In this document: positions 16,184-47,220 of the stretch, in pieces
Layout: each line of letters opens with the position of its first letter
Position numbering within the stretch: position 1 is the stretch's first letter
Source of the DNA: Octopus vulgaris
Lineage: Eukaryota
Reading direction: 5' to 3'
DNA length: 64,000 nucleotides
NCBI GenBank assembly: GCA_951406725.2
Contig: OX597824.1
Coordinates: 74,214,001-74,278,000, forward strand
Position numbers and translations under genes: made by a program
The notes under the pieces: generated by a model
What the model saw: only the letters and a program-made list of their open reading frames with translations
Told to the model about the DNA's origin: nothing
Database searches by the model: none

Positions 16184-17859
16184 CTCTGTCAAATATAATG
16201 CTTATTTATTCACATTGTTTTTAATTAATCATGCATTATCTTGTAATTTTAAGATTTTAATGAGGTAACTGTTTATTTTTAGAATGATATTGTAGGGTTG
16301 ATGTGAGAGGTCATATCTGGCTAGTTTCAACATAAAACAAATACTGTATATACATGTGGATGGGTTATACTTTTTTTTTTTTTAAACCAAGAATTTCAAT
16401 AAAAACCAAGGGTGCGACCTATCCACTTGACATCACAAGGACCTGAAGTAGACAGCAGTATGTCAGTAGTGGAGTTGATTTATCAATTAGACTACTTTCA
16501 TAAAGTCACTTCTGCTACAAAAAAAAAAATAATACAATTAAAAAAAAACACCATTGAAAGGGAAATTGGGAAAATTAATGTTGATTGGTTCTGAGTAATG
16601 CCAGTTGAGGCGGCCGATGCCAGCGCCGCCTCGACTGGCTTCCGTGTTGGTGGCACGTAAAAAGCACCATCCGAATCGTGGCCGAAGCCAGTGCCGCCTT
16701 GACTGGCTTCCGTGCAGATGGCATGTAAAATGCACCAATCCGACCGTGCTAGCATGGAGAACGGACGTTAAACGATGATGATGATGATTAACTGAATGTT
16801 AACATTGAATCAACATCATCATCATCATCATCAATTGATATGCTTTCTTGGGTCAGACAGAATTGGTTGAGGTAGATTTTCTCTAGATGGATACTCTTCC
16901 TGTTGCTTACCCTCACATGACATCAAGAGAATGGTATACCCCCCCCCACACACACACACACATGCACAATTATATGATGGGCTTCTTTCATTTTCTGTCA
17001 ACCAAATTCACTTATAAGGCTTTTGGTCAGCCCGGGGCTGCAGAGAGGACACTTGCTCAAGGTGCCATATGGTGGGGCTGAATCTGAGATAGCATGGTTG
17101 GGAAGCAAGCCACACCTGTAATGGAGTGTGACATTATTAAGATCGAAAGTGATTTTAATAAAATTTCTTATATGTATATCTTTTATTCATGTATCAAAAG
17201 GAACTATAAATTTACCTGTTGATTGTCCAGTCTTCTGTTTAACAGGTGAATGCCAGTTTGGCTTTGTGTCCAAATGTATCCATTAAGCTTACATTATCTC
17301 ACAGGTTTGAGATTTCAATATAATTGCTCATTCTTACTCTGACATTGTAGGGTAGGTGTGAAAGGCAGGACCTGACCAGTTTGAATGTAAAACAGGAAAA
17401 ATATTTTGGCTATGTATCCATTCTGTCATTTATATATCAGTGAAATACTTATTTGATTGAATGTCCACTGGTGAAATACCTGTTCAGCCAAACGCCATCA
17501 GCTGTCTGTCCTGGAGCCATTCCCCCATTTCCAGAAAGCATGTACGCACCAGATCACAGCATGCTCACTTCCTCCCATCCGTCTTCAGATACTGCTGTAT
17601 AGCTGCTCCAACTTGATATAAATCACTTCAGAAATTTGGCTCCACAACAACAGACTTAAAATAGCACCTACCAAATCCACTGTCTGCCTTGATACAAACA
17701 ACATAGAGAGGAAGAGTGAGAGAAAATATCAACTACAACCTTCATATTCAACAACATAAACATAACACACATACTCATGCGCACAGCGTCCGTAAATATG
17801 ATTTGTATACAAAACCTCCTCAACATTCACAACACAAATAGAAGACATTCTGCTTCAAG

Positions 17860-18250
17860 TGACCGCAACCAAGATGTCATGGCCCAGCATGCCAGGAGGA
17901 ATCTCAGTTGCCCGGCTAGCTTTGGTAGGTCCTCAATTTTCTGTTGTGTGTCTTTGCCAGTAGCATCAGTGTAGATGAGTAGTCTGTGTCTGCTATTAGA
18001 GTGTGCAAGTCTCTAAAATACATCATCTGATGTGGTATCAGGTTGTTCAGCATGAACGCAGTAGCCGGCAAAGCTTACCCTGGCTGGACTGAGCAATATC
18101 ACAAGAGATGAGTGGAAGGTGTTCATAAATCTCTTTGGTCTTCTGTCCACTCTATACAATGTTTTGATGTTTATAGTTATGAAAGAAAAACAAAAGATGA
18201 ACATTCTTAGTTTAATATCACAGATACTCCATTTGGTCCACAGATAGAAA
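17860..18250 (-). mobile_element. Decayed RTE-type LINE 3' fragment
   Basis: Minus-strand RVSFAGYCVHAEQ resembles the RTE C-terminal RLRFAGHC motif; frame disrupted. Confidence 0.5.
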
Positions 18251-20489
18251 TAACAATTGCATACAAACATAGCTGTATGATGGACTAAAATGAACCAAAA
18301 AATAAACACATACACACTCTCTCTCTCTCTCTCTCTCTCTCTATGCTAGAGCCTGAAAATTCTGAATTTTTGGTGGGGAAGATAAAATTGTTTCCCTTTG
18401 TCATTTGTCAGTTCAGTCTATTCTGTTGTCTCTTGTGAGCTTAATCTTGAGGCAGATGATCTGTTTAACCCTTAGGCAAGTTTATTCAATGTCAAGGCAT
18501 GTCTACACATAGGAGGACCTGTGTGATAAATGGCTAGAGGCCAGCCCTTCTCCAACTCCTGTATATGGTAACTACAGGGATATCCTTTGGTTTTTGATCC
18601 AATATTCAAGCACTTGACTGGCACTACCACCCTAAATCAAAGTGGACCTGGAAATAGTGGTGACTAAGAGTTAATTCTGTATTGCCATAGACACAAACTC
18701 ATTGTTGGAGCTTCACTGTCAGATATAAGTATATATACTCAAGACATAAGCACATATAAAATGTACATATAAAGTACATATGAAATGTGCAGTTTGCATC
18801 ATCATATCTTGATTACAGATCACCCTCATAATAAAACAAAACTACTAGTTGGCCTATGGTGAAGGGTGGAATTTCTGTCTTCTGTGAAAAAACATGTCGG
18901 ATCATAAGAAATATATTGCTTGGAAACAGGTGAGAGTTTGTGACAGCAAGAGCATCCAGCCATAGGCAACCTCCTTATCATCATCATTTAATGTCTGTTG
19001 TCTATACTGGCATGAGTTGGATGGTTTGACCAGAGCTGGCTGCACCAGACTCCAGTCTAATTTTACATGATTTCTATTACTGGATGCCCTTCCTAACACC
19101 AACCATTTTACAGAGTGTGCTGGGTGCTTTCATATGGTGCCACAACCTGCCTCAACATATTCTGTCTGATTCATGCAAGCATGGAAAAATGGATGCTAAA
19201 TGATGATGATGATTTATTAATTACTAAAAGGCCTTAAAAGAAATAACAGCAAATTAGGCATCATGTAAGTTTATATTGGGGGAAAACTGAGAACAGAGTG
19301 TTACTCCAACTCACAAAATATAAAACAAATATAACTATGTCGAAAGTTGACCTGAGGTGAGTGGGAATAAAGGGGCCATGTGATAAGAAACTTGCTTCCC
19401 AACAACATGGTTCCAGGTTCAGTCCCACTGCATGGTACATTGGGCAAGTGTCTTCTACTATAGCCTTGGGCTGACCAAAGCCATGTGAGTAGATTTGGTA
19501 GACAGAAACTGAAAGAAGCCTGTCATGTGTGTGTGTCTTTGTCCCACCACCACTTGATAACCAGTGTCAGTGTATTTATGTTCCTGTAACTTAGAGGTTC
19601 AGCAAAAGTGACCAATAGAATAAGTATTAGGCTTTAATTTTTTTCAGGATCAGGTAATTAATTCAATGTCCATCCTTCAACAGTTGAAGTGGGGTTGGTT
19701 TTCTTTTAGGGATTCCCTTCCTTAGACAAGCTCAGTGCTGCCCATACTTATGAGTTCCAACTGTTCCAGATTTGAAATCCTGAGAGAAGCTTACTTCTCC
19801 TTGGGAATTTTTTACGACTCCCCAATCTGACTACCCCGACTCTGTGACTCCTCAAATGTGGATGCTAAGACCTAGTCATGATATCTCCCCAGACATTTGC
19901 ACCTGTGCTGCGTTAGCTGTGGCCAGAGTCATGTCCACCTTGCTTTATATTCTGCGGAAACACATTAACATGTTGTGAAAGCGTGGTTACGGAGTTCACC
20001 CCTATCTAGGGACCCTCTGATCACCCTAAACTAGAAGCTCTAAGTAGATCAAATAATATCAGTTGTTTGGAAAAAAAACCCCAATGGGAACATAGTTTCC
20101 TTGACTTGCTTATGACATCAACTATCACCACTGCTATATAGGTCGACTTTGCCTTTCATCCTTTCGGGGTCGATAAGTAAAGTACCAGTTACGCACTGGG
20201 GTCGATGTAATCGACTTAATCCCTTTGTCTGTCCCCTCTATGTTTAGCTCCTTGCGGGCAATAAAGAAATATATCTAACGCTATCTTCCTTATTTAAGAC
20301 AGTAGGGTGAGTTTTTATGGAAGATTTAGCTGTTATTTCTAACAGGTTAAATGATATGGGTGTTCAGTAGTTGGCTCGGCTATACAACTGTAAATGCAGG
20401 TGGTGGCCTCAACAGGGGTGTGTTTACTTTGTGGCCTCCCAACCCAGTTGTGGACATTCACCACAAAAGTGTGGTAGAAGTGGGAGTTG

Positions 20490-20890
20490 GTCATGAATGT
20501 AGTGGCAGAAAATAATTACGATGATGATTATGATGTTGATGGTGATTGAAATATACTTGGTGATAGGGATAGTAGTTGTAGAGATGGTGGTGGCAGTAGT
20601 AGCTGTGGAGTGATGGTAGCAGTGCCTGGTGCAGAGTAGTGGTATATGTAGTAGGGGTAGCAGCGAGAGGAATGGTAGTGGTGGCAGAATAATGATGGTC
20701 ATAGCGAAACGGGTATAGAGGTGGTAGAAGTAGTAGTGAGTAGTGGTGGTAGCAATAGCTGAGGAGTGGTGGTAGGGTTAATTGTAAGGGTATATAGTTA
20801 GTTGGTAGTATTGATGGTAGTAAGTTAGTTAGTTAGCTAGCTAGAAGTTGTTGAAGAAATGTGAAGTGGAGCAGTGTAGTAGTATACTCA
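20490..20890. repeat. Degenerate (GTA/GTG/GAT)n low-complexity tract
   Basis: Directly visible. Confidence 0.85.
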
Positions 20891-21139
20891 ACATACCACA
20901 GCAGACGACATTGTGGTCTAAACATTCAAGTTATATATATAAGGCGTTATAGACATATATATATATATCTATCTTTACTACCCACAAGGGGCTAAACACA
21001 GAGGGGACAGACAAACGGATTAAGTCGATTATATCGACCTCAGTGCGTAACTGGTACTTATTTAATCGGCCCCGAAAGGAATTTGAACTAAGACGAAATT
21101 TCGCCCGGCGTGCTAACGTTTCTGCCAGCTCGCCTTTAT

Positions 21140-21204
<65 letters not shown>

Positions 21205-21244
21205 TATAAGGTATATAATTGGTAGAATTCCCTCAAATAATAAT

Positions 21245-21280
<36 letters not shown>

Positions 21281-21312
21281 CGTTATATGCACTTATATAT
21301 ATACTTTTTAGA

Positions 21313-21680
21313 CGTCATGTGTCGTCAGGAACATGTTTCAAAACAACTTTGAATTTTAAAATTTCATGTTGAAACTTGTCTTTCAGCTGCACGCTGAGAC
21401 AGTAACAAAAGCCTGCACAGACACGTTCCCAGCTTGGGTATAGCAATAAACGAACATGTTGAGACTTGTTTAGTGAAGGAAGGCTTGCACAGACATGTTG
21501 AGACGTGTTTTATGGAAGTGGGGGCTTGCATAGTACAAGTCTGTGCAAGTCCCTGCTGAAAGTAAGAGAACATGTCAAGACTTGTTTATAACTTGGGTGC
21601 TGCGGGGATGTTAGCTGTTTATCTGTTCAGACGTGTCTGGAGCTTGGCTGAAGACAGAACAGGTTGGATCTTGTCTGGAG
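21313..21680. promoter_or_regulatory. Cluster of p53/p63/p73-family response elements (candidate BAX enhancer)
   Basis: 4 perfect and about 13 one-mismatch RRRCWWGYYY half-sites, many with 0-bp spacers, e.g. GAACATGTTG-AGACTTGTTT 21452-21471, AGGCTTGCAC-AGACATGTTG-AGACGTGTTT 21481-21510, GAACATGTCA-AGACTTGTTT 21568-21587. Confidence 0.75.
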
Positions 21681-23273
21681 AAAGCTGAAAGTGAAAGGAA
21701 CGTGCATGCACGAAGTTGTCTTGCTGCTGCTTGGTTGAAGTAAAATTGCGTGTAGGGTAGTTTAAGTTTAAAGAGCTTTGCTGAAATTTGCTTCGCTTGA
21801 CTGAATTATAAAAGGAAAATAAAAAAGGGGGGAAAAAAAGAAAGAAAAAACACTTAACAAACAAAAAGTTGGCTAGATCTTTGTTGAAATGAAAGAACTT
21901 TTGTAAAAGTGTCTAGCTTGGCTGAAGTAAAATCTCATATGAAGACCTGTCTGTAAGATATTGAAAGTTGAAGCTTGTAGAAAGAAGCTTGGTTGTTGTC
22001 ACTTGGGTGAAAACATATCAGTTGGTAGTGTATTGAAGTGAAAGTAGAAAGAGAAAAAAAAAATGTGTATAGCAATGGCTTAAGAAAAGAAAGAAAAAAA
22101 CAACAATTATTGAGATGTTATGAAAAGTGCACACGGAAAATAAAAACTGGTTTGTTCGTAACGAAAAAAAAAATAATAGATCAGCTGTAATGTGCTGTGA
22201 GATGGAAATTGTTTTGGAGACGGCCCAGTCTTCAAGTGAATAATTAATATCCATCCATCATCATTATCACCATCGCAATCATTATCTCTTTCTTCTTCAT
22301 CCAACATCATCCAACTGCCAAACTAGTCCCCTATTTATTTATGTATTCCTTGAATGTCCATTGTACCATGATAAAATCTACACAAGGTAGGAAATTCACA
22401 TTTTTTTTTTATCAATGATTACAAAGCAAAATTATATTTTTTTCTCTCCATAATTTTTCTCTGACATTTTGGTTTTTTTTTTTTTTTTATAAGTAAAGGT
22501 GATATTACTTTGTGATCACTTAATAGCTGAGGCATGATTTACGAGAAAGATGATATTCAATAGAAATATGTTCACAGACATACATTCACCCTTCAAAACC
22601 TCTTCAAACGAACACCCACTCCTTCACACGCACATACACCCACATACTCTTTCTTACTATCTCTCCTATCTTCCTCTCTCCCTCTGTCTTCCTCTCTCTC
22701 TCTCGTACCTACACACGCGCGCTTACATAGCAACACAATATCTTGCAGATGTGGATGGGCTTATAATTGTTAAGAAATGTAAAATGCATAGAAAAAGAAA
22801 GAAAGTATCTTGCGTAGTAGCCCTTGGGCAAGTGCCTTCTAATAGCTCTGGGCTGACCGTAGCTTTGTGAGTGGATTTGGTTGACGGAAACTGAAAGAAG
22901 CCCGTCGTGTATGTGTGTGTGTATACATACATACATACATACACACACACATACTCTTTTACTTGTTTTTGTCATTTGACTGTGGCCATAATGGAGCACT
23001 GCCTTTAGTCGAGCAAACCGACCCCAGGACTTATTCTTTGTAAGCCTAGTACTTTCTTAGTTTTTGTCTACCAGATCCTCTTACAAGGCTTTTGGTTGGC
23101 TACAGTAGAAGGCACTCACCCAAGATGCCATGCAATGGGACTGAACCTGGAACCATGTGTTTGAGAAGCAAATTCCTTAACCTATACCTACACAGTCAAT
23201 ACTACACTTCATCAAAACTCGCATCCCTCCTCTATTCTGACAATGCAACACAACTATTCCAAATATGAGGATT

Positions 23274-23495
23274 AGGCGGCGAGCTGGCAGAAACGTTAGC
23301 GCGCCGGGCGAAATGCTTAGCGGTATTTCGTCTGCCGTTACGTTGTGTTCAAATTCCGCCGAGGTCAACTTTGCCTTTCATCCTTTCGGGGTCGATTAAA
23401 CAAGTACCAGTTACGCACTGGGGGTCAATGAAATCGACTTAATACCTATGTCTGTCACCTCTATGTTTAGCCCCTTGTGGGTAATAAAGAAATAG
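23274..23495 (+). mobile_element. SINE family B, full length
   Basis: GGCGGCGAGCTGGCAGAAACGTTAGC head, GTTCAAATTCC B box, AAAGAAAT tail; another copy at about 36149-36380. Confidence 0.88.
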
Positions 23496-26400
23496 GTTGT
23501 AAACAAATATCACCATCATATAAGCGATGTTGCTTGTTTCCAAACTTCTGTGGAAAACATTTCCGGCCATGGAGAAATATTGCTTACACAGGCACATACA
23601 TGTGTGTGTGTGTGTGTGTGATGGGCTTCTTGTTTTCATCCACCAGATCCACTCAAATGGCTTTGGTTGAACTCTAGACTACTTGGTTGAGATGCAAGCT
23701 TCTTAACAACTGCCACTCTTGTGTCTAATGTAGTAAAGAAAGCAACTTGACGCATAAACACATTTAGATCACTCACAGATGACAAATTTTTGCTTACAGT
23801 TACAAACCACAATAATTGTATACAAACAACATATGAGATATATCATAGACTAATCAGTCCTCTCTGGACATGCAATCTCACCCAAACAAACCACAAGTTA
23901 TGTAATACAGTGTATTACATATCAACACAGCAGTACAAAAGACAAATGACCTCTTGGACATGCAAATTTTACCTCTCACATTCCTTCATCATCATCATCA
24001 TCATCGTCGGCTTTCCATGCTAGTATGGGTTGGACGATTTGACTGAGGATTGGTGAACCGGATGGCTGCCCCAGGCTCCAATCTGATCTGGCAGAGTTTC
24101 AACAGCTGGATGCCCTTCCTAATGCCAACCACTCTGAGAGTGTAGTGGATGCTTTTATGTGCCACCGGCACGAGGGCCAGTCAGGTGGTACTGGCAACGG
24201 CCATGCTCATGGTGTTTTTTACGTGCCACCTGCACAGGAGCCAGTTCAGCGGCACTGGCAACGATCTTGCTCAAATGTTTTTTCACGTGCCAGTAAGGTG
24301 ATGCTGGTAACAATCACGCTCGAATGGTACTTTTTATGTGCTACCGGCACGGAAACCAATCAGCTGCTCTTGCAACGATCACAGTCTGATGGTTCTTTGT
24401 AAATTATCACTCCCTAATCATCTGGACTCTACTGCAACAGCATCCTGTCACAGACAAACGTTAAAAAACACATACACGCAGAAATAGCTGCAACCTCAAT
24501 AGCTTCACCAGCCCAAACATGTTATGCATGGATGCACACTACCAATAACAAGTATGGAGGAGCAGCTGTTGTTGAACTTTAACTATTTTGTCACCTTAGT
24601 TATGTTGAAACATACTACCTTATTTGCAATTAACTTTTAAAATAGTGAAGAATTTGTTAAAATTACTGTCATTATATGCTGATGCAAGGTAATGAGCTGA
24701 CAGAATCATTAGCACGACAGTCAAAATTCTTAAGTGCATTCTGCCTTGTCTTTACATTCATCCTCCTCCTCCTCATCATCATCATCATTTAATGTCCGTT
24801 TTCCATGCTAGCATGGGTTGGACGGTTTGACCAGGGTCTGGGAAGCCAGGAGGCTGCACCAGGCTCCAGTCTGATCTGGCAGTGTTTCTATATCTGGATG
24901 CCCTTCCTAATGCCAACCACTCAGTGAGTTCAAATTCCACCATGGTTGACTTTGCATTTCATCCTCTTGAGTGTTGATAAAATAAGTACCAGTTGAGGAC
25001 TGGGTTTGATGTAATTGACTTAGTCCTTCCCTTACAATTGCTGGCCTTGTGCCAAAATTTGAGACCATTTTATGCTGGTGTCTGGAATATGAATTAATGT
25101 GAAATTTTGATGGAAGGTTTTGTTTATATCACTTTAAAATAGAGAATTCGTATCAGGGAACCAAAGAGCAGTTTCAAATGAGTTGGTATCAAAAGAGTTG
25201 ATCAAGCTTACATTTCCTCCTCAACTGTTGCCACTGCCAGAATCAACAGGTATACAGAATAAGAAAACTGGATATTGGGAAGGGTAACAGGGTTAGGGTA
25301 CCTATTCCATGGAGTAGGGTACCTACTCCATGCTTGTTGGAGTGTACAGTCTCGTCTTCAGTTAGAGTATTTTATGAGTGGTAAAGTAGATCTGTGTGTC
25401 ACATCTAATCATTTGATTGGAGCTCAGCTGGAGCGGCATAAGAACGACAACAATACTTTCAGCTGTTGGTGAGTATATTAATTAACAGAGTAAAATATTT
25501 TCAGATATTGATCTCATATAGAGAGAAATACATTCACACAGTTTCAAATATTGGTGACTAATGTCTGTAGTGTAAAATATATTCACATACAGATCACTTA
25601 TGTTCAAACAATTTCCTTTTGATTAAATTAATTAATTTTGACTTAATTAAGTTATATCTTCTCATTATGGCACAATTAAATGGAAGTAGGAATCTCATCT
25701 GATGTAGTTGAAGTTTTTCTTCTTCTTTTTTTTTACTTTTCTTTTTATTTTGCTCAATTTTTCTGTACGGCAGATTTATCCAATCCATGCTAAGATGGGA
25801 GAAATGGACATTTAAAATGATGACAGTGTTGTTTGGCATCAGATCAGATCTGATTTAACTGGCCTGTGATCAAAGACATTCCATCTGTAACCATCCTGTC
25901 TTTTTAAGAAGTTTGTGGGATATACATTATTTAATATAAACGTTCCTTGTTGATAGCAATGTAGTGTACTTTGAGAGAAATTTAGCTGCTATTTCTAGCA
26001 GGGTTGAACAGCCATATTGAAGTTCCCTCTGATGATAAAATTGATGATGCTGTGATAGTGAACTAATTTTTAGTGACATAAGCAGGCTGCTTTTCTCCAT
26101 GCTTCTTTGTTTTTGGTTTGGTCTATAACAGTGTATCGCAAAAGGGTTTCCATTTTAAAATACTTGGGGTTTCTGTAAGATAAAATATAGGCATTTAATT
26201 AATAAAAAGGCTAACTGGAATCATGTCACCACATATTTATGTATATAAAAAAAACCCAAAAAACAGGCAAATAAAAGAATAATGTCGAAAAATTTTTAAT
26301 GGAAAGAAAATCATAAGCTTCAATTGTTAAACAAAAAAGAATACTCTAAATGTAATGAAGAAACTCATAAAAAGAAATCTTAAACCATAAATCACTTTTC

Positions 26401-26691
26401 AGCAGCTACTTTCTTCAAAACCTAGAAATTTGGCAATATCTTTGAATTCTGAGAAGTTTTCTTTCATCTCAGAATCTTATACATAGATATAATTTTCAAT
26501 GTCATATAAATTGTTACTTAAGCCACATTTCTCAAAAAACCTTCATAATAACTTTTTCTTTAATAGTCCTCTTAAGATTTCTTTGTCTACTCACAGATGA
26601 GTGTAATATTAGGATATTTTACTCAGCCAGTGGGAGTGAATGGTTGCTCACTTGGTGAAATCAGTAAACACTTCACTCATGAATTCTTTAA

Positions 26692-26912
26692 CCCTTTCGT
26701 TACTGTATTTATTTTGAGATGCTCTGTGTTTCTTTCAATTACTATAAATATAACAAAGAATTTAGTAAAATAACTTAATTATCATTCAGCTAGTGTTAGG
26801 AACATAAATTGTGACTAAGGTTTCTTGGAAGATTTTAATTCAAAACTTATGAAAATAAGACATTTGTACTGCAGATCCAGAGTCGGTTTCAGCTGGGTTG
26901 GTAACGAAAGGG
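26692..26912. mobile_element. piggyBac-type MITE family 1
   Basis: TTAA TSD, CCCTTTCGTTAC TIR. Confidence 0.88.
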
Positions 26913-27938
26913 TTAATGGGTTTTTTGATAAACAGATCCAGTGGTTGCATTTATAAACCAGGAATCATTGCAGTTTGGGTATTATAATTATGAAGTCTTT
27001 TTGTTCACTCAGTGATATGAGCTCTGAACTGATTTAGAGAAAATGAACTAGTGAAAATGGCTTGTTTAGTATCCCACTAGGATATCTTCTCCATACTTTC
27101 TGCCTCCAAATTTTCATTCCTTGTTCATCCATCCAATTTTAAGGATAAACATGACCAAAAATACATTAGGATAAATTTGTCTTTGGAAACATCTTTTTGT
27201 TGAAAAGGGAAGATGGTAATTTTTTACCATTTCACAAGCCTTCATGAGGCTTGTGAAATGGCACATGGCCTAGTAGTTAGAATGCTGCACTCACAATTGC
27301 CAGGTCATGGGTTTGATTCCTGGGCTGGGTGATATGTTGTGTTCTTGAGCAAAACATTTCACCTCATGCTGGTCTGGCACTGTGTGGGGACGGGCATGTC
27401 AAAAAAATAGACCCAATACTTCCTCTGCATATCATAAAAGGTGACTAAATAGGATTTGCACTGTGACCTCGTAAAACCCTCACAAGCAACAACTATCCAA
27501 ACACACCCTTAGGCTAGAAAGGTTGTTATGTGAGTGATGCAAAGGTGTTAAGAGTTGTGAATCACCAACAAATGGTGGATGCAGTGGTGTACTTTTACAG
27601 CACATGCTCTCATATTCCTACTAGCTCTATAAGTCAGAATGATGGTATAATACATTTTTAATGTCCAGTTGTTTTGTGATAGTTCTGGATCATTTAAAAA
27701 CTGACAGTTGACAGGGCATCAAAATTGAGAGGAATTTCATCCAGGTTTTCAATTTTGTGCCATTTCAAAATCTTTCTGCTTTCTCGTCTTTATGAAACTT
27801 GTGAAATTCCAATATTTTATCTTCACAAGCTTTGGACATTTTCTGGGAAATTCTAGTTCTTGTATGCAATTGTAAATTGTGTCTTTTCATAAATCTTTCA
27901 CATTCTTATGCTGTACCTTTAAAATCTGTTATTTTTAA

Positions 27939-28159
27939 CCCTTTCATTACCGTATTTATTTTGAGATGCTCTGTTTTTCTTTCAATTAATTTGAAATATA
28001 ACAAAGAATTAGTAAAATAACATCGTTATCATTAAGCTAGTGTTAGGAACATAAATTGTGACAAAGGTTTGATGGAAGTTTTTAATTCTAAACTTATGAA
28101 AACAAGACATTTGTACTACAGAGCCAGAGCCGGTTTCAGCCAGGTTGGTATTAAAAGGG
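27939..28159. mobile_element. piggyBac-type MITE family 1
   Basis: TTAA TSD, CCCTTT TIR, body matches the 10985 copy. Confidence 0.85.
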
Positions 28160-28589
28160 TTAAATCCTGTACAATTTTCTTTACTTCAAAAGTATTAATC
28201 ATCATTGTTGATAAAACACTCCCAGAATTTCTGTTGTCAATAGTCTAAGCATTTGCTTATTCTTCCAGTTTTGATCATTTAACAATTCCTCTTTTAAAAA
28301 TTGTATTTTGTTCATCCTAAAGTCTTGATACTTTCAGTAGATGATGGTCTAAAACTCCTAGTAGTAGTTCTATTGCTGTGTATTCTAGTGTATTCAGTAA
28401 CCAACGGCTTTATAACCAGCAGGATGTGTTAGTTGCTCCTGCCTGGATTCCATCTGAGTTTTTTATTTTGCAAAATAAGAATGAGGAAGTTGAATGCAAG
28501 AATGTGATGCAGGTAGAGCACTTACCTGTAAACCAGTAAAGGTGCCAAATTCTGCCATTATCTCTTTGCTGATTTTTAAATCAATAAGC

Positions 28590-29215
28590 AAATACTGGTA
28601 TATTCATTGTTGAAATGGATGGGAATATACAGGAAATAGAATAGAATTAACAGAATATTCAGGAATACCTTGTTACAAACTACAGTATCTAAAATAGACA
28701 TGCCTGCATGCACCAGACAGCTACTGTATCCCCTCTGAGCATCAAAAATAGACTCATCCACTTGTGCCAAGTGACGGCAGTATTTCCACCCATCCCATTT
28801 GAACATCTAGAATATATATATAAGGATGGCATAAGGACTACTATGAAGTCACTTGGAATGATTCCAGAAGATATAGAAACCCTTACTTTGGATTGAGTTG
28901 GATGGTGAACAAAGGTGTGGAGTAGAGTGAAAGCATTTGAAGAGGCCAAGATAATGCAAGTAAGACTCAAATGAGATCTAAGGAAGAATGTAACGATCAA
29001 GAAGACAAATGACAATGACCTTTTTGTGTGCACTGTCTGTGACAGACCTCACCTGTCTTTTGCTGGCCTCAAATCTCATCTGCAAACGCATGGAAAACGA
29101 ACCTCCACCAACTATTCTGCCTATATGTCTGTGCACACCTTTGAATGCAGTGTATGCCAGAAGGTCTGCAAATCCAATAAAGGCCTCAAAAGACATTTTA
29201 AGATCCACAAAGAGC
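28590..29215 (+). mobile_element. Decayed RTE-type LINE C-terminal fragment with two C2H2 zinc fingers
   Basis: YKDGIRTTMKSLGMIPEDIETLTLD*VGW*TKVWSRVKAFE then CTVCDRPHLSFAGLKSHLQTH and CSVCQKVCKSNKGLKRHFKIH; in-frame stops. Confidence 0.7.
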
Positions 29216-29504
29216 AGAACTTACAGTTCTTGGTGGTCCAAATTGGAGGTACAATCTATGTGGGTGTCTTTTCAGAACATTGTCTGGTTTAAAAAGCCAC
29301 ATCAGATACCATGATGGTGCTAAGATGCAGGTACAGGAGGTGGTCAAATTCTGCACAAGGAGTAAACAACCACATATATATATATATATATATATATATA
29401 GTAGAGTCCACAGTGATCCGTAGGTAGGAGAGGTGCAGCCAGAGGGTAAATGTCCGAAAGAGAATCCGTAAAGCACGAAAAACGGATGTTAAATGATGAT
29501 AATG

Positions 29505-29545
<41 letters not shown>

Positions 29546-31021
29546 TTCAGTTTGAGTTTCGCCCCTTAGTGTCAATGTTTTGCAACAGCAGGAAGGCAGC
29601 ATTTAAAATTCTCCATTATATAATCAGTAATGTCTTTCTGATTAACATAACATAATATTCTTGATGGTTTGAGTAAACACTGTTTTACCGTTTGAATTAA
29701 ATGAATTACAGTTATATCATTATACATTTAATTGTGTTTATCATAATGAAACAGCTGCTGAATACAATTAATGTATGAACTCTATATGCAATTTTATGCT
29801 TTTTATGCTAGATGTGCTGTTCTTAAAGATTGTTTTAGCTGATTATGTATATACATCCAAGTTGGTCCCACTTGGATTTATTGCAGTATAATAAAGTATT
29901 TGAGTTTAACAATATGTATTAATTGAGCTCTTCATATTGAGGATGTATTCTTTGAAGTTTATGCATCAATTTTCTATATGGATATATTGCATAAAACAGC
30001 TGTGGTTATCACTTAATGTGTTTATCACAAAACAGAAGTAAAACAAATTGAAACGAATCAAAACAATTATGCTGTGTACCCTTTCTATTGGTATAAACTT
30101 CACACGCACAACTCGGCTAATATTGAATTGAAAATTTAGAACTCTTTAAAAAAAATTTGTATAGCAGCTCTAATAAATCAATATTTCTTGGCCTACATCA
30201 AAATGTATATTTGTAAAGACTCTAATGAAGCCTGATGGCATGTTTGTTCAGAATCATTTTATATGACTTTATTAGCATATCGATATCCATATTTCGTGAT
30301 TGCTATTCTGTCTGTACCAAACTTCATTTACAAGGCATTAAGACAACAGACAGCTGCTTGACTCTCTTCATACAAACCTGCCTTAACCCTTTAACATTCA
30401 GCTTACTTCATCAAATATAATGCTTATTTATTCACATTCTTCATCATCATCGTTTAACATTCGCTTTCCATGCTAGCATGGGTTGCACGATTTAACTGAG
30501 GGCTGGCGAACCAGATGGCTGCACCAGGCTTCAATCTTGATCTGACAGAGTTTCTACTGCTGGATGCCCTTCCTAACACCAACCACTCCGAGAGTGTAGT
30601 GGGTGCTTTTTACGTGCCACCGGCACGGGGCCAGTCAAGCAGTATTGGCAATGACCTCGCTCGAATCTTTTACACATGCCACCGGCACAGGTGCCAATGA
30701 CGTGATGCTGGTAACGATCATTCTCGAATAGTGCCTTTTACATGCCACCGGCATGGAGGCCAGATAGCCGCTCTGGCAACAATCACACTGGTATGGTGCT
30801 CTTTGCACGCCGCTAGCACGGATGCCAGTCATCGATTTTGATTTTGATTTATTCACATTGTTTTGAATTAATCATGCATTATCTTGTAGCGTCATGATAT
30901 TGATGTTGAGACTGTATATTTTTAGAATGATATTGCTAAGATGTTGGATCTGGTCAATTTTAGCATAAAACACATAGAATATCGGGCTGGTTATGGCCAG
31001 TTTATATGCTAAAGAGTTAAC

Positions 31022-31410
31022 CGCCCCTAGTTTTGTGATACAGACTTCCTGTTTTAACCCTGTTGATACAAACCTGCCCAAGGTTGTCCCCTGTTCTGTG
31101 TTGCAAATTTCCTGTTTTAACCCTCTTGGTACTAACCTTGCCACTTGGTTCTATGATACAAGCTTTCTGTTTTAATACCAGCCCACCCAAAACAGCCCCT
31201 TGTGCTGTGATACAGACTTCCTGTTTTAACCCTGTTGATACAAACCTGCCCAAGGCTGCCCCCTGTTCTGTGTTGCAAATTTCCTGTTTTAACCCTCTTG
31301 GTACTAACCTTGCCATCTGGTTCTATGATACAAGCTGTCTGTTTTAATACTTTTAATACCAGCCCACCCAAAACAGCCCCTTGTGCTGTGATACAGAGTT
31401 CCTGTTTCAA
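31022..31410. repeat. Tandem repeat, about 172-bp unit x2.3, built from 50-60 bp subunits
   Basis: GTGATACAGA recurs at about 31036, 31208, 31388; CTGTTTTAA subrepeat. Confidence 0.9.
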
Positions 31411-31721
31411 AGTCATCTAAAAAACACCTTTCATCTAAATTTCATGTTAAGTTCTAATCATCAGATTAATAATCCTTTCTACCATAGGCACAAGGTCTTA
31501 AATTTTGAGGGAGGTGGCTAGTCAATTATATTAACCCCATTACATAACTGGTGCTTATTTCATCGACCCTGAAAGGATGAAAGACAAAGTAGACCTCGAA
31601 GGAATTTGAACTCAGAACATTGAAAGACAAACAAAATGCTGCTAAGCATATTGCCTGGCCTGCTAACAATTCTGCCAGATTGCTGCCTTAATTGCCAGAT
31701 TGATAATGACAATTATTTTTG

Positions 31722-31878
31722 AGTGGCTGTGTGGTAAGTAGCTTGCTTACCAACCACATGGTTCCGGGTTCAGTCCCACTGCGTGGCACCTTGGGCAAGT
31801 GTCTTCTACTATAGCCTCGGGCCGACCAAAGCCTAGTGAGTGGATTTGGTAGACAGAAACTGAAAGAAGCCCGTCGTA

Positions 31879-31927
<49 letters not shown>

Positions 31928-32160
31928 GATATGTATGTGTGTGTAAATGTTTGTATGTCTGTGTTTGTGCCCCCAACATCACTAGTCAACCGATGCTGGT
32001 GTGCTTACGTCCCCGTAACTTAGCGGTTCAGCAAACAAGGCCAATAGAATAGGTACTAGGCTTACAAAGAATAAGTCCTGGGGTCGATGTGCTCGACTAA
32101 AGGCGGTGCTCTAGCATGGCCACAGTCAAATGACTGAAACAAGTAAAAGAGTAAAAGAGT
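31722..32160 (+). mobile_element. SINE family A, well preserved
   Basis: Similar to 340-745; CpGs retained. Confidence 0.88.
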
Positions 32161-33734
32161 TATCTTTAAAATTAATTGAAACAAAAGCAGTGTATTTGGT
32201 CAGAAATATTGTAACGAAAAGGTTAAAGTAATCTAAATTACGCCTTTTTGTCAAAATTTTATGTTAACTGTTGTGTCTGGGGAGAGCCATGTATTATGTA
32301 ACACACTCACTATTGAAAATGTTGCAAGACGCAACGAAAATTTTAGGACAATAAAAATAAGGGAAAAAAGTGGAAATTTTACCGGTGAGTGTATTACATA
32401 ATAAGGCACAAAAAGAAAATGACCCTCCCCAGACACAACAGAATATGCTTCAACACACGAACTCATATAAAGAATCTTGCAAACCAAATCCAAAAAACAA
32501 AATATTTATGTTAACTTTTGTACCAAAAAGCGTATCAACAATGACTATTTTATTTTACTAATGTTAGTGTTATTTTAAAAATCGTTTCAGTAGAAATATG
32601 ATCACAAAATAGTTAAGATGTTATGCTGTTGAACAGAACATGAAATCACATGATTGCAAAACATACTATATCATCATCATCATAATGTACATGCTTATTG
32701 TTTATAGAGGCAGATTTTCTATGGTTAGATATGCATCTTGTTACCAAGCCACACCTGTTTCCAAGCAAGGTTAAATATCTCCCTAGCCAGACACATTTAC
32801 ATAAAGTACTGAAAGTGAATGGTAGTGCTTGTGTGACAGTGACATACATTGACGACTATTGTGCAAAGTCAAGACAAGGAAATACAAACATACACACAGT
32901 CACGTGCGTGTGTGTGTGTTTCTCTCTCTCCTTGTCATGATATCACATGACTGTTGTAAATGAATACCATCCATTTCCATTATTCTGCAAAAACTTGTCT
33001 GGCCATGAGGAAATATTATCTCGCTTGGGAACAAGTGAGTGTTGGTGACAAGAAGAGCATCCAGCTGTAGAAAATCCACCTGAAATCCATCTGAACCATG
33101 CAAGCATGGAAAAGTGGGCATTACAATAATGATGATAACACACACGCATGCATGCATGGGGACACACACACACACACACACACATACATTCTTTCAGTTT
33201 CTTATTTCTTTATTACCCACAAGGGGCTAAACATAGAGGGGACACACAAGGACAGACAAATGAATTAAGTCAATTACATCGACCCCGGTGCGTAACTGGT
33301 ACTTATTTAATCGACCCTGAAAGGATGAAAGGCAAAGTCGACCTCAGCGGAATTTGAACTCAGAACATATCGGCAGATGAAATACTGCTAAGCATTTCGC
33401 CCGGCGTGTTAACGTTTCTGTCTACCAAATGCATCCGGAAGGTTTGGGTCAACCTGAGGTGCAGTAGAAGAACAAATTACCCAGTGTTCCACACAATAGG
33501 GCTGAACCCAAAACCTCATGATACGGAACCAAACTTCTTAACCACACAGCTACTGACTGTGTGTATATATTCATTGTAAATAGGTTTGAAATATATTGAG
33601 AGAGGATTTTTATTTTTGTTTTTCTGCCATTGGTTCTACTGTGGAACTGAAATCTTCACTTCTTTTTGCTTCTTCTTATCTTATTTGTTGTATGACCCTT
33701 GCACTTCAATTATTATTATTTTTTTTTTTTTCAG

Positions 33735-33881
33735 AACCGCCCAGGAAAAACTTAAACAGAGATGATGTGGGCAACCAGGCGCGGTGTTTGTTGAACCAGT
33801 TCATCCATGACAGGATGGAAAATGAAGGCTTCGAAAATCCTCTGCAAGAGTCCAACCTCATCGAACCAGACACACCAACAG
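33735..33881 (+). CDS. BAX: BAX-like gene, first identifiable coding exon (N-terminal/alpha1 region); start exon not identified
   Basis: Poly-T tract + cag acceptor, ag|gtaagt donor; 147 nt, phase 1-1; (E)PPRKNLNRDDVGNQARCLLNQFIHDRMENEGFENPLQESNLIEPDTPT(G); in frame with the BH3 exon. Confidence 0.88.
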
Positions 33882-34227
33882 GTAAGTAACTATCTGTTCA
33901 GTCATAACTCAGCATTAACTTGCTTGTTGTACTTGCTCCTTGTTTCATGCTTTTTTTCTTTTGCAGCCACCCATCTATACAAGTGTAAACTGAATACGAG
34001 CTGCATTGATTTCATCACTCTGGGAAAGCTTACAAACATACACATATATAGTATTATTGGATTGCTACTTATCCCATGTTGTTTCTACAAACATTGATCA
34101 GACATCAACCGCATTTATCTTCTCAGGTTTCAGGAGCTTATTAAGCATGTGGCCACTGTTCCGCATTCCTTAATTAACTTAAGTATACTGCATGTTGATG
34201 TTAAGAATAAAGCACTCAAAACATTCT

Positions 34228-37898: not shown

Positions 37899-37983
37899 GT
37901 CCACCGATGTCTCAGCTAGAAGAAATAGGACGTGCTCTACGGTGTATTGGTGATGAATTAGATGGAGACCAAAGACTGCAAGA
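37899..37983 (+). CDS. BAX: BAX-like exon, BH3 domain
   Basis: tgatccag acceptor, gtaagt donor; 85 nt, phase 1-2; PPMSQLEEIGRALRCIGDELDGDQRLQ; LRCIGDELD matches human BAX BH3 LKRIGDELD. Confidence 0.95.
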
Positions 37984-43576: not shown

Positions 43577-44045
43577 ATCTAGCTGATGTAAATGAAAACC
43601 TGCTTCGCATTTAGATCTAAAAACCAGGTGTTCTTAGATCTAAGTGTGTTCTAAAAGGTGTTCTTTAGATCTAAGAACCAGAAGACAATCCTTGTTGAAG
43701 TATATAATATCAATGAATGCCAGTATATGTTTGACAATGTGTGTGTGTGCCCTGATTTTGACATTATGTGATGGTAGCAAATAAGCATTGCTGTCATATA
43801 AGTGATGTTCCTTCCAGTCTTACATGAAAAAACATGTTTAGCTATGAAAAAAATATAATCTTACTTGGAACTGGTTGAGTGTTGGTGACAGGAGAGGCAT
43901 CCAGCAGTAGTACAAAAATCTGCTTCATAATTTCTGTGTGTCCCATGCAAGTATGGAAAAGTGGACATTAAATGATGCTGATTATGTTAAGGAATGCATT
44001 TTCTGATGTCTGATTTAATCTCGATTTTCCATTATTCTCTTACAG

Positions 44046-44178
44046 TTTGGTATCAAGGATAGAGCCTGAAGATATTCCCAATACATTTCTCAATGTTGCC
44101 AGTGCTATTGTCTCTGTAAACCTTACTTGGGATATAGTGGTTCGGTTCTTTTACTTTGCCTACAAAATGGCCATCAAG
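44046..44178 (+). CDS. BAX: BAX-like exon, alpha3-alpha5 with atypical BH1
   Basis: ctcttacag acceptor, aag|gtgagt donor; 133 nt, phase 2-0; LVSRIEPEDIPNTFLNVASAIVSVNLTWDIVVRFFYFAYKMAIK aligns to BAX FFRVAADMFSDGNFNWGRVVALFYFASKLVLK. Confidence 0.93.
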
Positions 44179-44205
44179 GTGAGTTCTAACAACTGCTTTA
44201 TAGTT

Positions 44206-44284
44206 CTATGTTTAAGAGATGAGGAATTATGTACATTATTTACATCCGACAGATATTTGTCCTCATCTTGTTTGTTGTTAACAC
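44206..44284 (-). mobile_element. Retroposed 3' fragment of the hammerhead SINE in a BAX intron
   Basis: Near-identical to 60602-60680; TSD TTTATAGTT at 44197-44205 and 44285-44293. Confidence 0.8.
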
Positions 44285-44553: not shown

Positions 44554-44652
44554 GCATTGGACCGGATTCCTTTAATCCGAGCCATCATCAACTTAGTTAT
44601 TAATTTTATAGTAGACAATCTTGCTGATTGGATTCTATCTCGAGGTGGATGG
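44554..44652 (+). CDS. BAX: BAX-like exon, alpha6 to BH2
   Basis: tttcag acceptor, tgg|gtgagt donor; 99 nt, phase 0-0; ALDRIPLIRAIINLVINFIVDNLADWILSRGGW; intron after GGW is the conserved Bcl-2 family position. Confidence 0.95.
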
Positions 44653-47109: not shown

Positions 47110-47220
47110 GAAGCCATCGTGGAATATTTTGGCACCCCAAAGAGGCAAGCCTTTGGTGTTTTAATAGCCGGTGTTCTTATCAGTGTTGGCGTCTATGCGT
47201 GGAAGAGTTTGGGTGATTAA
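47110..47220 (+). CDS. BAX: BAX-like terminal coding exon, alpha9 transmembrane tail and stop
   Basis: tttacag acceptor; EAIVEYFGTPKRQAFGVLIAGVLISVGVYAWKSLGD* versus human DGLLSYFGTPTWQTVTIFVAGVLTASLTIWKKMG; the YFGTP motif points to BAX rather than BAK or BCL2. Confidence 0.95.
   Translation, partial: EAIVEYFGTPKRQAFGVLIAGVLISVGVYAWKSLGD

Follow-up and report, generated by a model that had tools for sequence, protein, structure and literature searches.

How far the BH1 motif of a BAX protein can be altered while the protein still acts as a mitochondrial pore former is a question raised by a gene of Octopus vulgaris that lies in the window analyzed here, a stretch of 64,000 nucleotides (GenBank assembly GCA_951406725.2, contig OX597824.1, positions 74,214,001 to 74,278,000 of the forward strand). 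Six exons on the + strand join in frame (Table 1), and their product matches letter for letter a database protein (P0003) recorded as BAX-like from Octopus vulgaris, so that the gene already carries a BAX annotation in public records. No paper on the BH1 change of cephalopod BAX was found in the open text of PMC and bioRxiv. The available parts of two surveys of invertebrate apoptosis genes have no passage on the cephalopod BAX sequence (PMC10959488, PMC11463336), and a squid paper, in its available part, treats Bax and Bak as ordinary (PMC9389742).

Table 1. Features of the octopus BAX gene, in window positions.
Feature	Positions	Strand	Basis or content
Predicted p53-type array, 13 half-sites (5 full 20-mers)	21329..21676	.	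0.7 kb before exon 1b, intronic to main first exon
Alternative first coding exon 1b	22341..22386	+	15/15 residues equal to P0003 N-terminus; similar isoforms recorded in three Octopus species
Exon 2: alpha1 and alpha1-alpha2 loop	33735..33881	+	Exon match; frame check; contig cover
Exon 3: BH3 (alpha2), intact	37899..37983	+	Exon match; alignment; frame check
Exon 4: alpha3-alpha5 and rebuilt BH1	44046..44178	+	Codons; contigs; frame check
Rebuilt turn	44110..44145	+	V(F100) S V(D102) N(G103) [deletion] L T W D(G108) I(R109) V V R(A112)
Exon 5: alpha6-alpha7 and BH2	44554..44652	+	Spliced in X4 and X12; frame check
Exon 6, coding part: alpha8 and hydrophobic tail alpha9	47110..47220	+	Spliced in X4 and X12; stop 47218-47220

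Exon 4, at 44046-44178, reads VNLTWDIVVRFFYFA. The splice sites of the gene are GT-AG; exons 4, 5 and 6 are joined in contigs of runs X4 and X12, two runs treated as RNA on the strength of their splicing, as no run is recorded as RNA, and contigs from X4, X12 and X2 span 33738-33883 and run on into exon 3. Exon 4 is covered in X4, X12 and X16, and not in X17. The spliced contigs of X4 and X12 have no differing letter over 44046-44176, nor does contig 7 of X16 over 43948-44228, i.e., the exon with its flanks; the one X12 difference, at 33832, is synonymous. Because spliced contigs from two runs agree completely in exon 4, an assembly error is rejected as the source of the BH1 change, as is an alternative exon. 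The initial annotation, which was made from the sequence alone, had allowed that transcripts might show NWGR, and none does among the X4 and X12 contigs. The codon for D108 (GAT, 44131-44133) is one in which A-to-I editing would give Gly; neither an edited nor an NWGR form was seen in X4 or X12, where the depth in the bin of this codon is a single contig in both, in contigs that drop rare variants.

That annotation described a BAX-like protein that lacks NWGR and reads TWDI..RF, with G108 changed to D, R109 to I and A112 to R. The motif is borne out by the codons and the spliced contigs, and the three replacements by alignment to human BAX (PDB) and to a mammalian BAX row: codons 44119-44160 encode N L T W D I V V R F F Y F A, with TGG starting at 44128, GAT at 44131, ATA at 44134 and CGG at 44143. 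Four further changes had been missed: the replacements F100V, D102V and G103N, and the loss of one residue at about 104; N106T and L113F are changed as well. The whole alpha4-alpha5 turn is rebuilt, with F100, D102, G103, G108 and R109 altered, one residue deleted and Arg or Lys at 112. In 6/6 cephalopod rows D102 and R109 are lost while D108 and Arg/Lys112 are gained, and the net charge of segment 98-112 stays 0. This exchange of one Asp and one Arg for a new Asp and a new Arg or Lys fits the earlier suggestion of a charge-rewired groove. F100 is invariant in 44/44 other rows and is V or I in cephalopods. With TWDI or SWDT in place of an NWGR that includes G108 and R109, the protein is therefore filed as a non-canonical variant of the BAX/BAK effectors.

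The change is not confined to one species. BH1 is identical in all 11 Octopus records (three species), Argonauta has TWDIVVRL, and Sepia pharaonis and two cluster-mates have SWDTVVKL. The other hits of the same search carry [N/S/T]WG[R/K] in 45/45 cases, the named ones being molluscs and a brachiopod; no squid, Vampyroteuthis or Nautilus BAX is among the named hits. Columns were counted in 44 of these 45 close rows, P0056 being left out for an internal deletion, and in the 119 of 148 distant representatives that have the BH1 and BH2 columns filled. A basic 112 and Asp108 both occur in 6/6 cephalopod rows vs. 0/44 other close rows and 0/119 distant representatives, none of the 119 having either one. 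Among 71 columns at least 85% conserved in the 44 rows, nine are changed in all six cephalopod rows, and five of the nine (F100, D102, G103, G108, R109) sit among six neighboring conserved columns, a clustering that is therefore not due to chance (scan permutation p 0.003). Glu at 108 is found in seven of the 119 distant representatives, and Arg or Lys is missing at 109 in six. Single departures thus occur elsewhere, and the full combination is, as judged from the rows compared, seen only in cephalopods. Six BAX-like proteins with WE[R/N]IAV (P0105, P0131, P0151, P0154, P0155, P0161) share a natural acidic residue at 108 with octopus BAX, but R109 is retained in five of them and a basic 112 is absent from all six; they resemble fish Bax2/Baxb.

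The initial annotation also offered a divergent paralog as an explanation. A 53-row tree unites the cephalopod rows (100/100) within molluscan BAX (93/93), on a stem of 0.47 with short crown branches, and the octopus gene sits in the starred BAX group (98/96) and the starred lophotrochozoan group (95/92), not with BAK, BOK or Bcl-2; a 28-row quick tree agrees at lower resolution. The exact depth of this nesting is not fixed, since placing the gene as an out-paralog, outside other bilaterian BAX, survives an AU test (p 0.12). Searches of the genome by Pfam, exon by exon and with abalone BAX found no second BAX, canonical or otherwise, the abalone query matching five exons of the window gene and only other subfamilies elsewhere. 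The absence of a second BAX from these searches and the nesting in molluscan BAX therefore make a paralog unlikely, and one-to-one BAX orthology is the simplest reading, one that the tree alone does not prove. Octopus BAX scores 56.6 bits against Pfam PF00452 (cut-off 31.4). Several weaker candidates for family membership were dropped: L008 and L009, weak Pfam hits, are simple repeats, L011/L044 get no better than E 0.7, and L053 contains a stop and matches nothing.

Outside the turn, octopus BAX resembles molluscan and vertebrate BAX (PF00452; PDB 1F16, 5W62, 5W63). It is 57-59% identical to abalone, limpet and oyster BAX, its 12 best PDB sequence matches and its best fold match are BAX, and the split of BH1 and BH2 between exons is kept. 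BH3 (LRCIGDELD) has the core L-x3-G-D-x-L, BH2 (WILSRGGW) has W-x4-GGW, and the hydrophobic tail follows; these elements and the splice sites are intact, as first described. Identity between octopus and cuttlefish is 0.94 in BH3, 0.76 in alpha5, 0.84 in alpha6, 1.00 in BH2-alpha8 and 0.81 in alpha9, compared with 0.69, 0.74, 0.61, 0.79 and 0.33 for the remaining rows, where older splits are included. The split between octopus and cuttlefish is younger than those among other molluscs, which partly explains the high identity. Conservation is not limited to BH3, the pattern looked for in a sensitizer, since BH2-alpha8, alpha6 and alpha9 reach the octopus-cuttlefish values just given. In the groove lining (18 positions, from the available part of PMC9004659), 15/18 positions carry residues also found in other close mollusc rows, and 98, 108 and 112 are new. 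Of the lipid-contact residues (list from the available part of PMC8280806), octopus BAX retains F114 and A117 and has lost F100, with residues of molluscan type at 93 and 118. The tail helix alpha9 (47110-47220), 81% identical between octopus and cuttlefish and widely variable in other molluscs, starts with an invariant Lys-Arg, a possible partner of D108 at rest.

An AlphaFold model gives a confident Bcl-2 fold (pLDDT 86), with catfish BAX as best Foldseek match; confidence in alpha3-alpha4 is 84-90 vs. 94 in an abalone control. The modeled octopus alpha4 reaches residue 115, vs. 112 in the abalone chain, which is two residues shorter, and the turn is shortened. Both models lie 11-14 A off full-length human BAX monomers, and neither places alpha9 as in those monomers; the models therefore cannot test groove occlusion. 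On displacement of alpha9 by R112 the models carry no information, because the abalone control gave the same high rmsd.

The rest of the Bcl-2 family in this genome bears on what octopus BAX has to do. Two pro-survival-type genes keep NWGR; presumably they are Bcl-xL-like and MCL1-like, subfamily labels given by motif. A Bcl2L13-like exon is also present. A further gene (G000:C2:134381241-134383837; L024, L025, L042) lacks the BH1 Trp, with NLGR at BH1 and NQGR in O. bimaculoides; records of O. vulgaris and O. sinensis label it BAX, those of O. bimaculoides BAK. As "BAX isoform X1" in the records of two species it was a candidate second canonical BAX, and it was rejected because the tree and its exon structure both mark it as BAK-like, BH1 and BH2 sharing one exon here and lying on separate exons in the window gene. 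The 53-row tree places it as the sister of BAK, with a branch length of 2.49 (91/81, not starred). Its identity between O. vulgaris and O. bimaculoides is 130/176 (74%) vs. 204/206 (99%) for BAX, which indicates that it is evolving fast. A third effector-like gene (G000:C15:58.71 Mb; L003, L029, L030) has ITHSRI at BH1 and a BH3-like exon and resembles TRERI/SRHRI representatives, and a divergent single-exon gene of Bcl-2 fold (G000:C15:39506690-39507004; L004) has HWRR at BH1. Exon-wise searches of the genome found no BOK exon with one BOK-like query and no canonical BAK with a scallop-BAK query; as the latter also missed the divergent BAK-like gene, the sensitivity of this search is limited.

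The p53-type array upstream of exon 2, to which the initial annotation had tied a sensitizer role under tight transcriptional control, is real in that its best 300 bp hold 12 half-sites vs. 3-5 in 40/40 shuffles, and all five full sites of the window lie in it. Human BAX is itself a p53 target, and the array therefore does not favor a sensitizer; it fits a killer equally well. The array stretch is single-copy, and a p53-family gene is present in the genome. The first exon of isoform P0002 lies at G000:C11:74181164 (L045), 33 kb upstream of the window; the array is therefore intronic, within a first intron of about 66 kb. The junction of exon 1b is not listed in 4/4 runs, and the 5' parts of the main contigs do not map within 17500-34100; low-depth contigs at 21876-22138 may be DNA. 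A candidate further first exon at 17798-17920 matches O. sinensis isoform X1 in 33/41 residues before the match breaks off. Intron 1 also contains an open frame of 105 aa (28975-29292) that carries two C2H2 zinc-finger-like motifs and is probably the decayed end of a mobile element.

What, then, does octopus BAX do? Our preferred reading, to which we give about an even chance on the sequences described, is that this protein, the only BAX found, may well still be the main mitochondrial pore former, the Asp/Arg pair of the groove having moved rather than been lost. A resting D102-R109 salt bridge is expected in BAX by analogy to Bcl-xL. In the rewired protein, Arg/Lys112, one helical turn below 109 on alpha5, would contact BH3 Asp68 of a partner BAX, and D108 would be its counter-ion at rest. 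BH3-only activators would find their canonical docking site at G108/R109 weakened. Killing would depend mainly on how much protein is made, through the p53-type array, and on its release from the Bcl-xL-like and MCL1-like proteins, both of which retain NWGR and might still bind the intact BH3 of octopus BAX. In the available part of a human study, A112C cross-links to alpha9, which places 112 on the groove side, one turn from 109 (PMC9004659). Counted in favor of the pore former are the fixation of the change in three Octopus species, Argonauta and Sepia, the nesting of a sole BAX in molluscan BAX, the Asp108 and basic 112 held in every cephalopod row, the largely ordinary groove lining, the conservation of BH3, alpha6, BH2-alpha8 and alpha9 and of F114 and A117, and the lack of a canonical partner effector among the genes found; counted against it are the inhibitory effects of human G108V and R109D, the replacement of lipid-facing F100 by V or I, the Trichoplax precedent discussed below, the AU result, the limits of the exon-wise searches, and the fact that an intact BH3 could be explained by binding to pro-survival proteins alone.

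Human mutants at the same positions are informative here, as far as the available parts of the papers go. G108E/S184V retained substantial permeabilizing activity (PMC4891688). R109D released cytochrome c at 200 nM without cBID, did not respond to low-dose cBID, and is a strong BAK activator (PMC7181796). G108V and R109D are described as potent inhibitors of BAX homodimerization and function, yet still bind a BAK BH3 peptide (PMC9004659). In a bicelle-bound core dimer, the end of alpha4 and start of alpha5 (F100-R109) tilt away and the D68-R109' distance lengthens (PMC8280806). In human BAX, damage at 108/109 lowers activity without necessarily abolishing it. The octopus acid at 108 resembles G108E; however, G108V, G108E and R109D are single laboratory changes without a gained Arg/Lys112 or a rebuilt loop, whereas the cephalopod set is natural and conserved (PMC9004659, PMC4891688, PMC7181796). 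We tentatively extend the rewired pore former to a wider picture, clearly the more speculative of the two, in which coleoid cells would die without any NWGR effector: the BAX groove would have been rebuilt on the coleoid stem as a new and conserved Asp108/Arg112 switch, insensitive to classical BH3-only activators, BAK would have decayed and BOK been lost, and BAX dosage would be driven by p53.

The strongest competing explanation, possible although we consider it rather unlikely, is a groove-dead BH3 donor that makes no pores of its own and whose BH3 neutralizes the Bcl-xL-like or MCL1-like protein or activates the BAK-like or third effector-like protein. Trichoplax trBak (Bcl-2L4) has SWRR for NWGR and, according to the available parts of two reports, does not permeabilize alone and relieves trBax inhibition, i.e., it acts as a sensitizer without the BH1 Gly (PMC8998228, PMC7527217). 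It shares with octopus BAX an effector-class fold and an intact BH3, and in both proteins another residue replaces the BH1 Gly, but trBak keeps the BH1 Arg, is a BAK, and stands beside a canonical killing trBax, whereas in the octopus the change is in BAX and the searches turned up no canonical effector. The gain of BAK-activating ability by human R109D (PMC7181796, available part) is consistent with a donor, as are a BH3 that is the best-kept functional motif (0.94) and the NWGR kept by both pro-survival-type genes. However, a donor requires another pore former, while the BAK-like gene lacks W107 and is fast-evolving and BOK was not found by the one query; BH2-alpha8, alpha6 and alpha9 are conserved as well as BH3; and the new charges at 108 and 112 are held between octopus and cuttlefish, beyond what simple loss needs. 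The BH3-only sensitizer proposed by the initial annotation thus retains the trBak precedent, but conservation outside BH3 and a degenerate BAK weigh against it.

An improbable variant keeps pore formation and gives up the symmetric BH3-in-groove dimer: the mouth of the groove would be blocked, contacts of alpha5, alpha6 and alpha9 would damage the membrane, and abundance would be the sole control. Dimer-defective human mutants are active at higher dose in the available parts of two papers (PMC7181796, PMC4891688), and the longer alpha4 and shorter turn predicted by the octopus model point the same way; against this, 15/18 ordinary groove positions suggest that a helix still binds there. More doubtful again is the idea that coleoids dropped BAX and BAK for outer-membrane permeabilization and that BAX has a mitochondrial, non-killing role, both effectors having been freed of constraint. 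NWGR is missing from BAX, from the BAK-like gene and from the third effector-like gene (ITHSRI), and Apaf-1 and caspase-9 are reported absent in molluscs (PMC10959488, available part), but other molluscs also lack Apaf-1 and yet keep WGR. Moreover, snail and oyster are reported to release cytochrome c (PMC11463336, available part), Apaf1, Bax and Bak transcripts are listed in squid (PMC9389742, available part), and the p53-type array is located in the BAX gene. Finally, an artefact, a pseudogene, RNA editing back to Gly or a minor paralog beside a canonical BAX is very improbable: GAT is one A-to-I step from Gly and the AU test gives p 0.12, but spliced contigs show no differences, the D108 codon has no second contig, ATA is not editable to Arg, the motif occurs in five named species, and there is no second BAX in the searches made.

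Arguments over the need for the G108/R109 BH3-in-groove contact in BAX activation and pore formation still draw on laboratory mutants with single changes. In cephalopods, nature supplies a conserved BAX that lacks this contact, in an animal whose other effectors also look non-canonical, and it bears on how the cells of octopus and cuttlefish commit to death.
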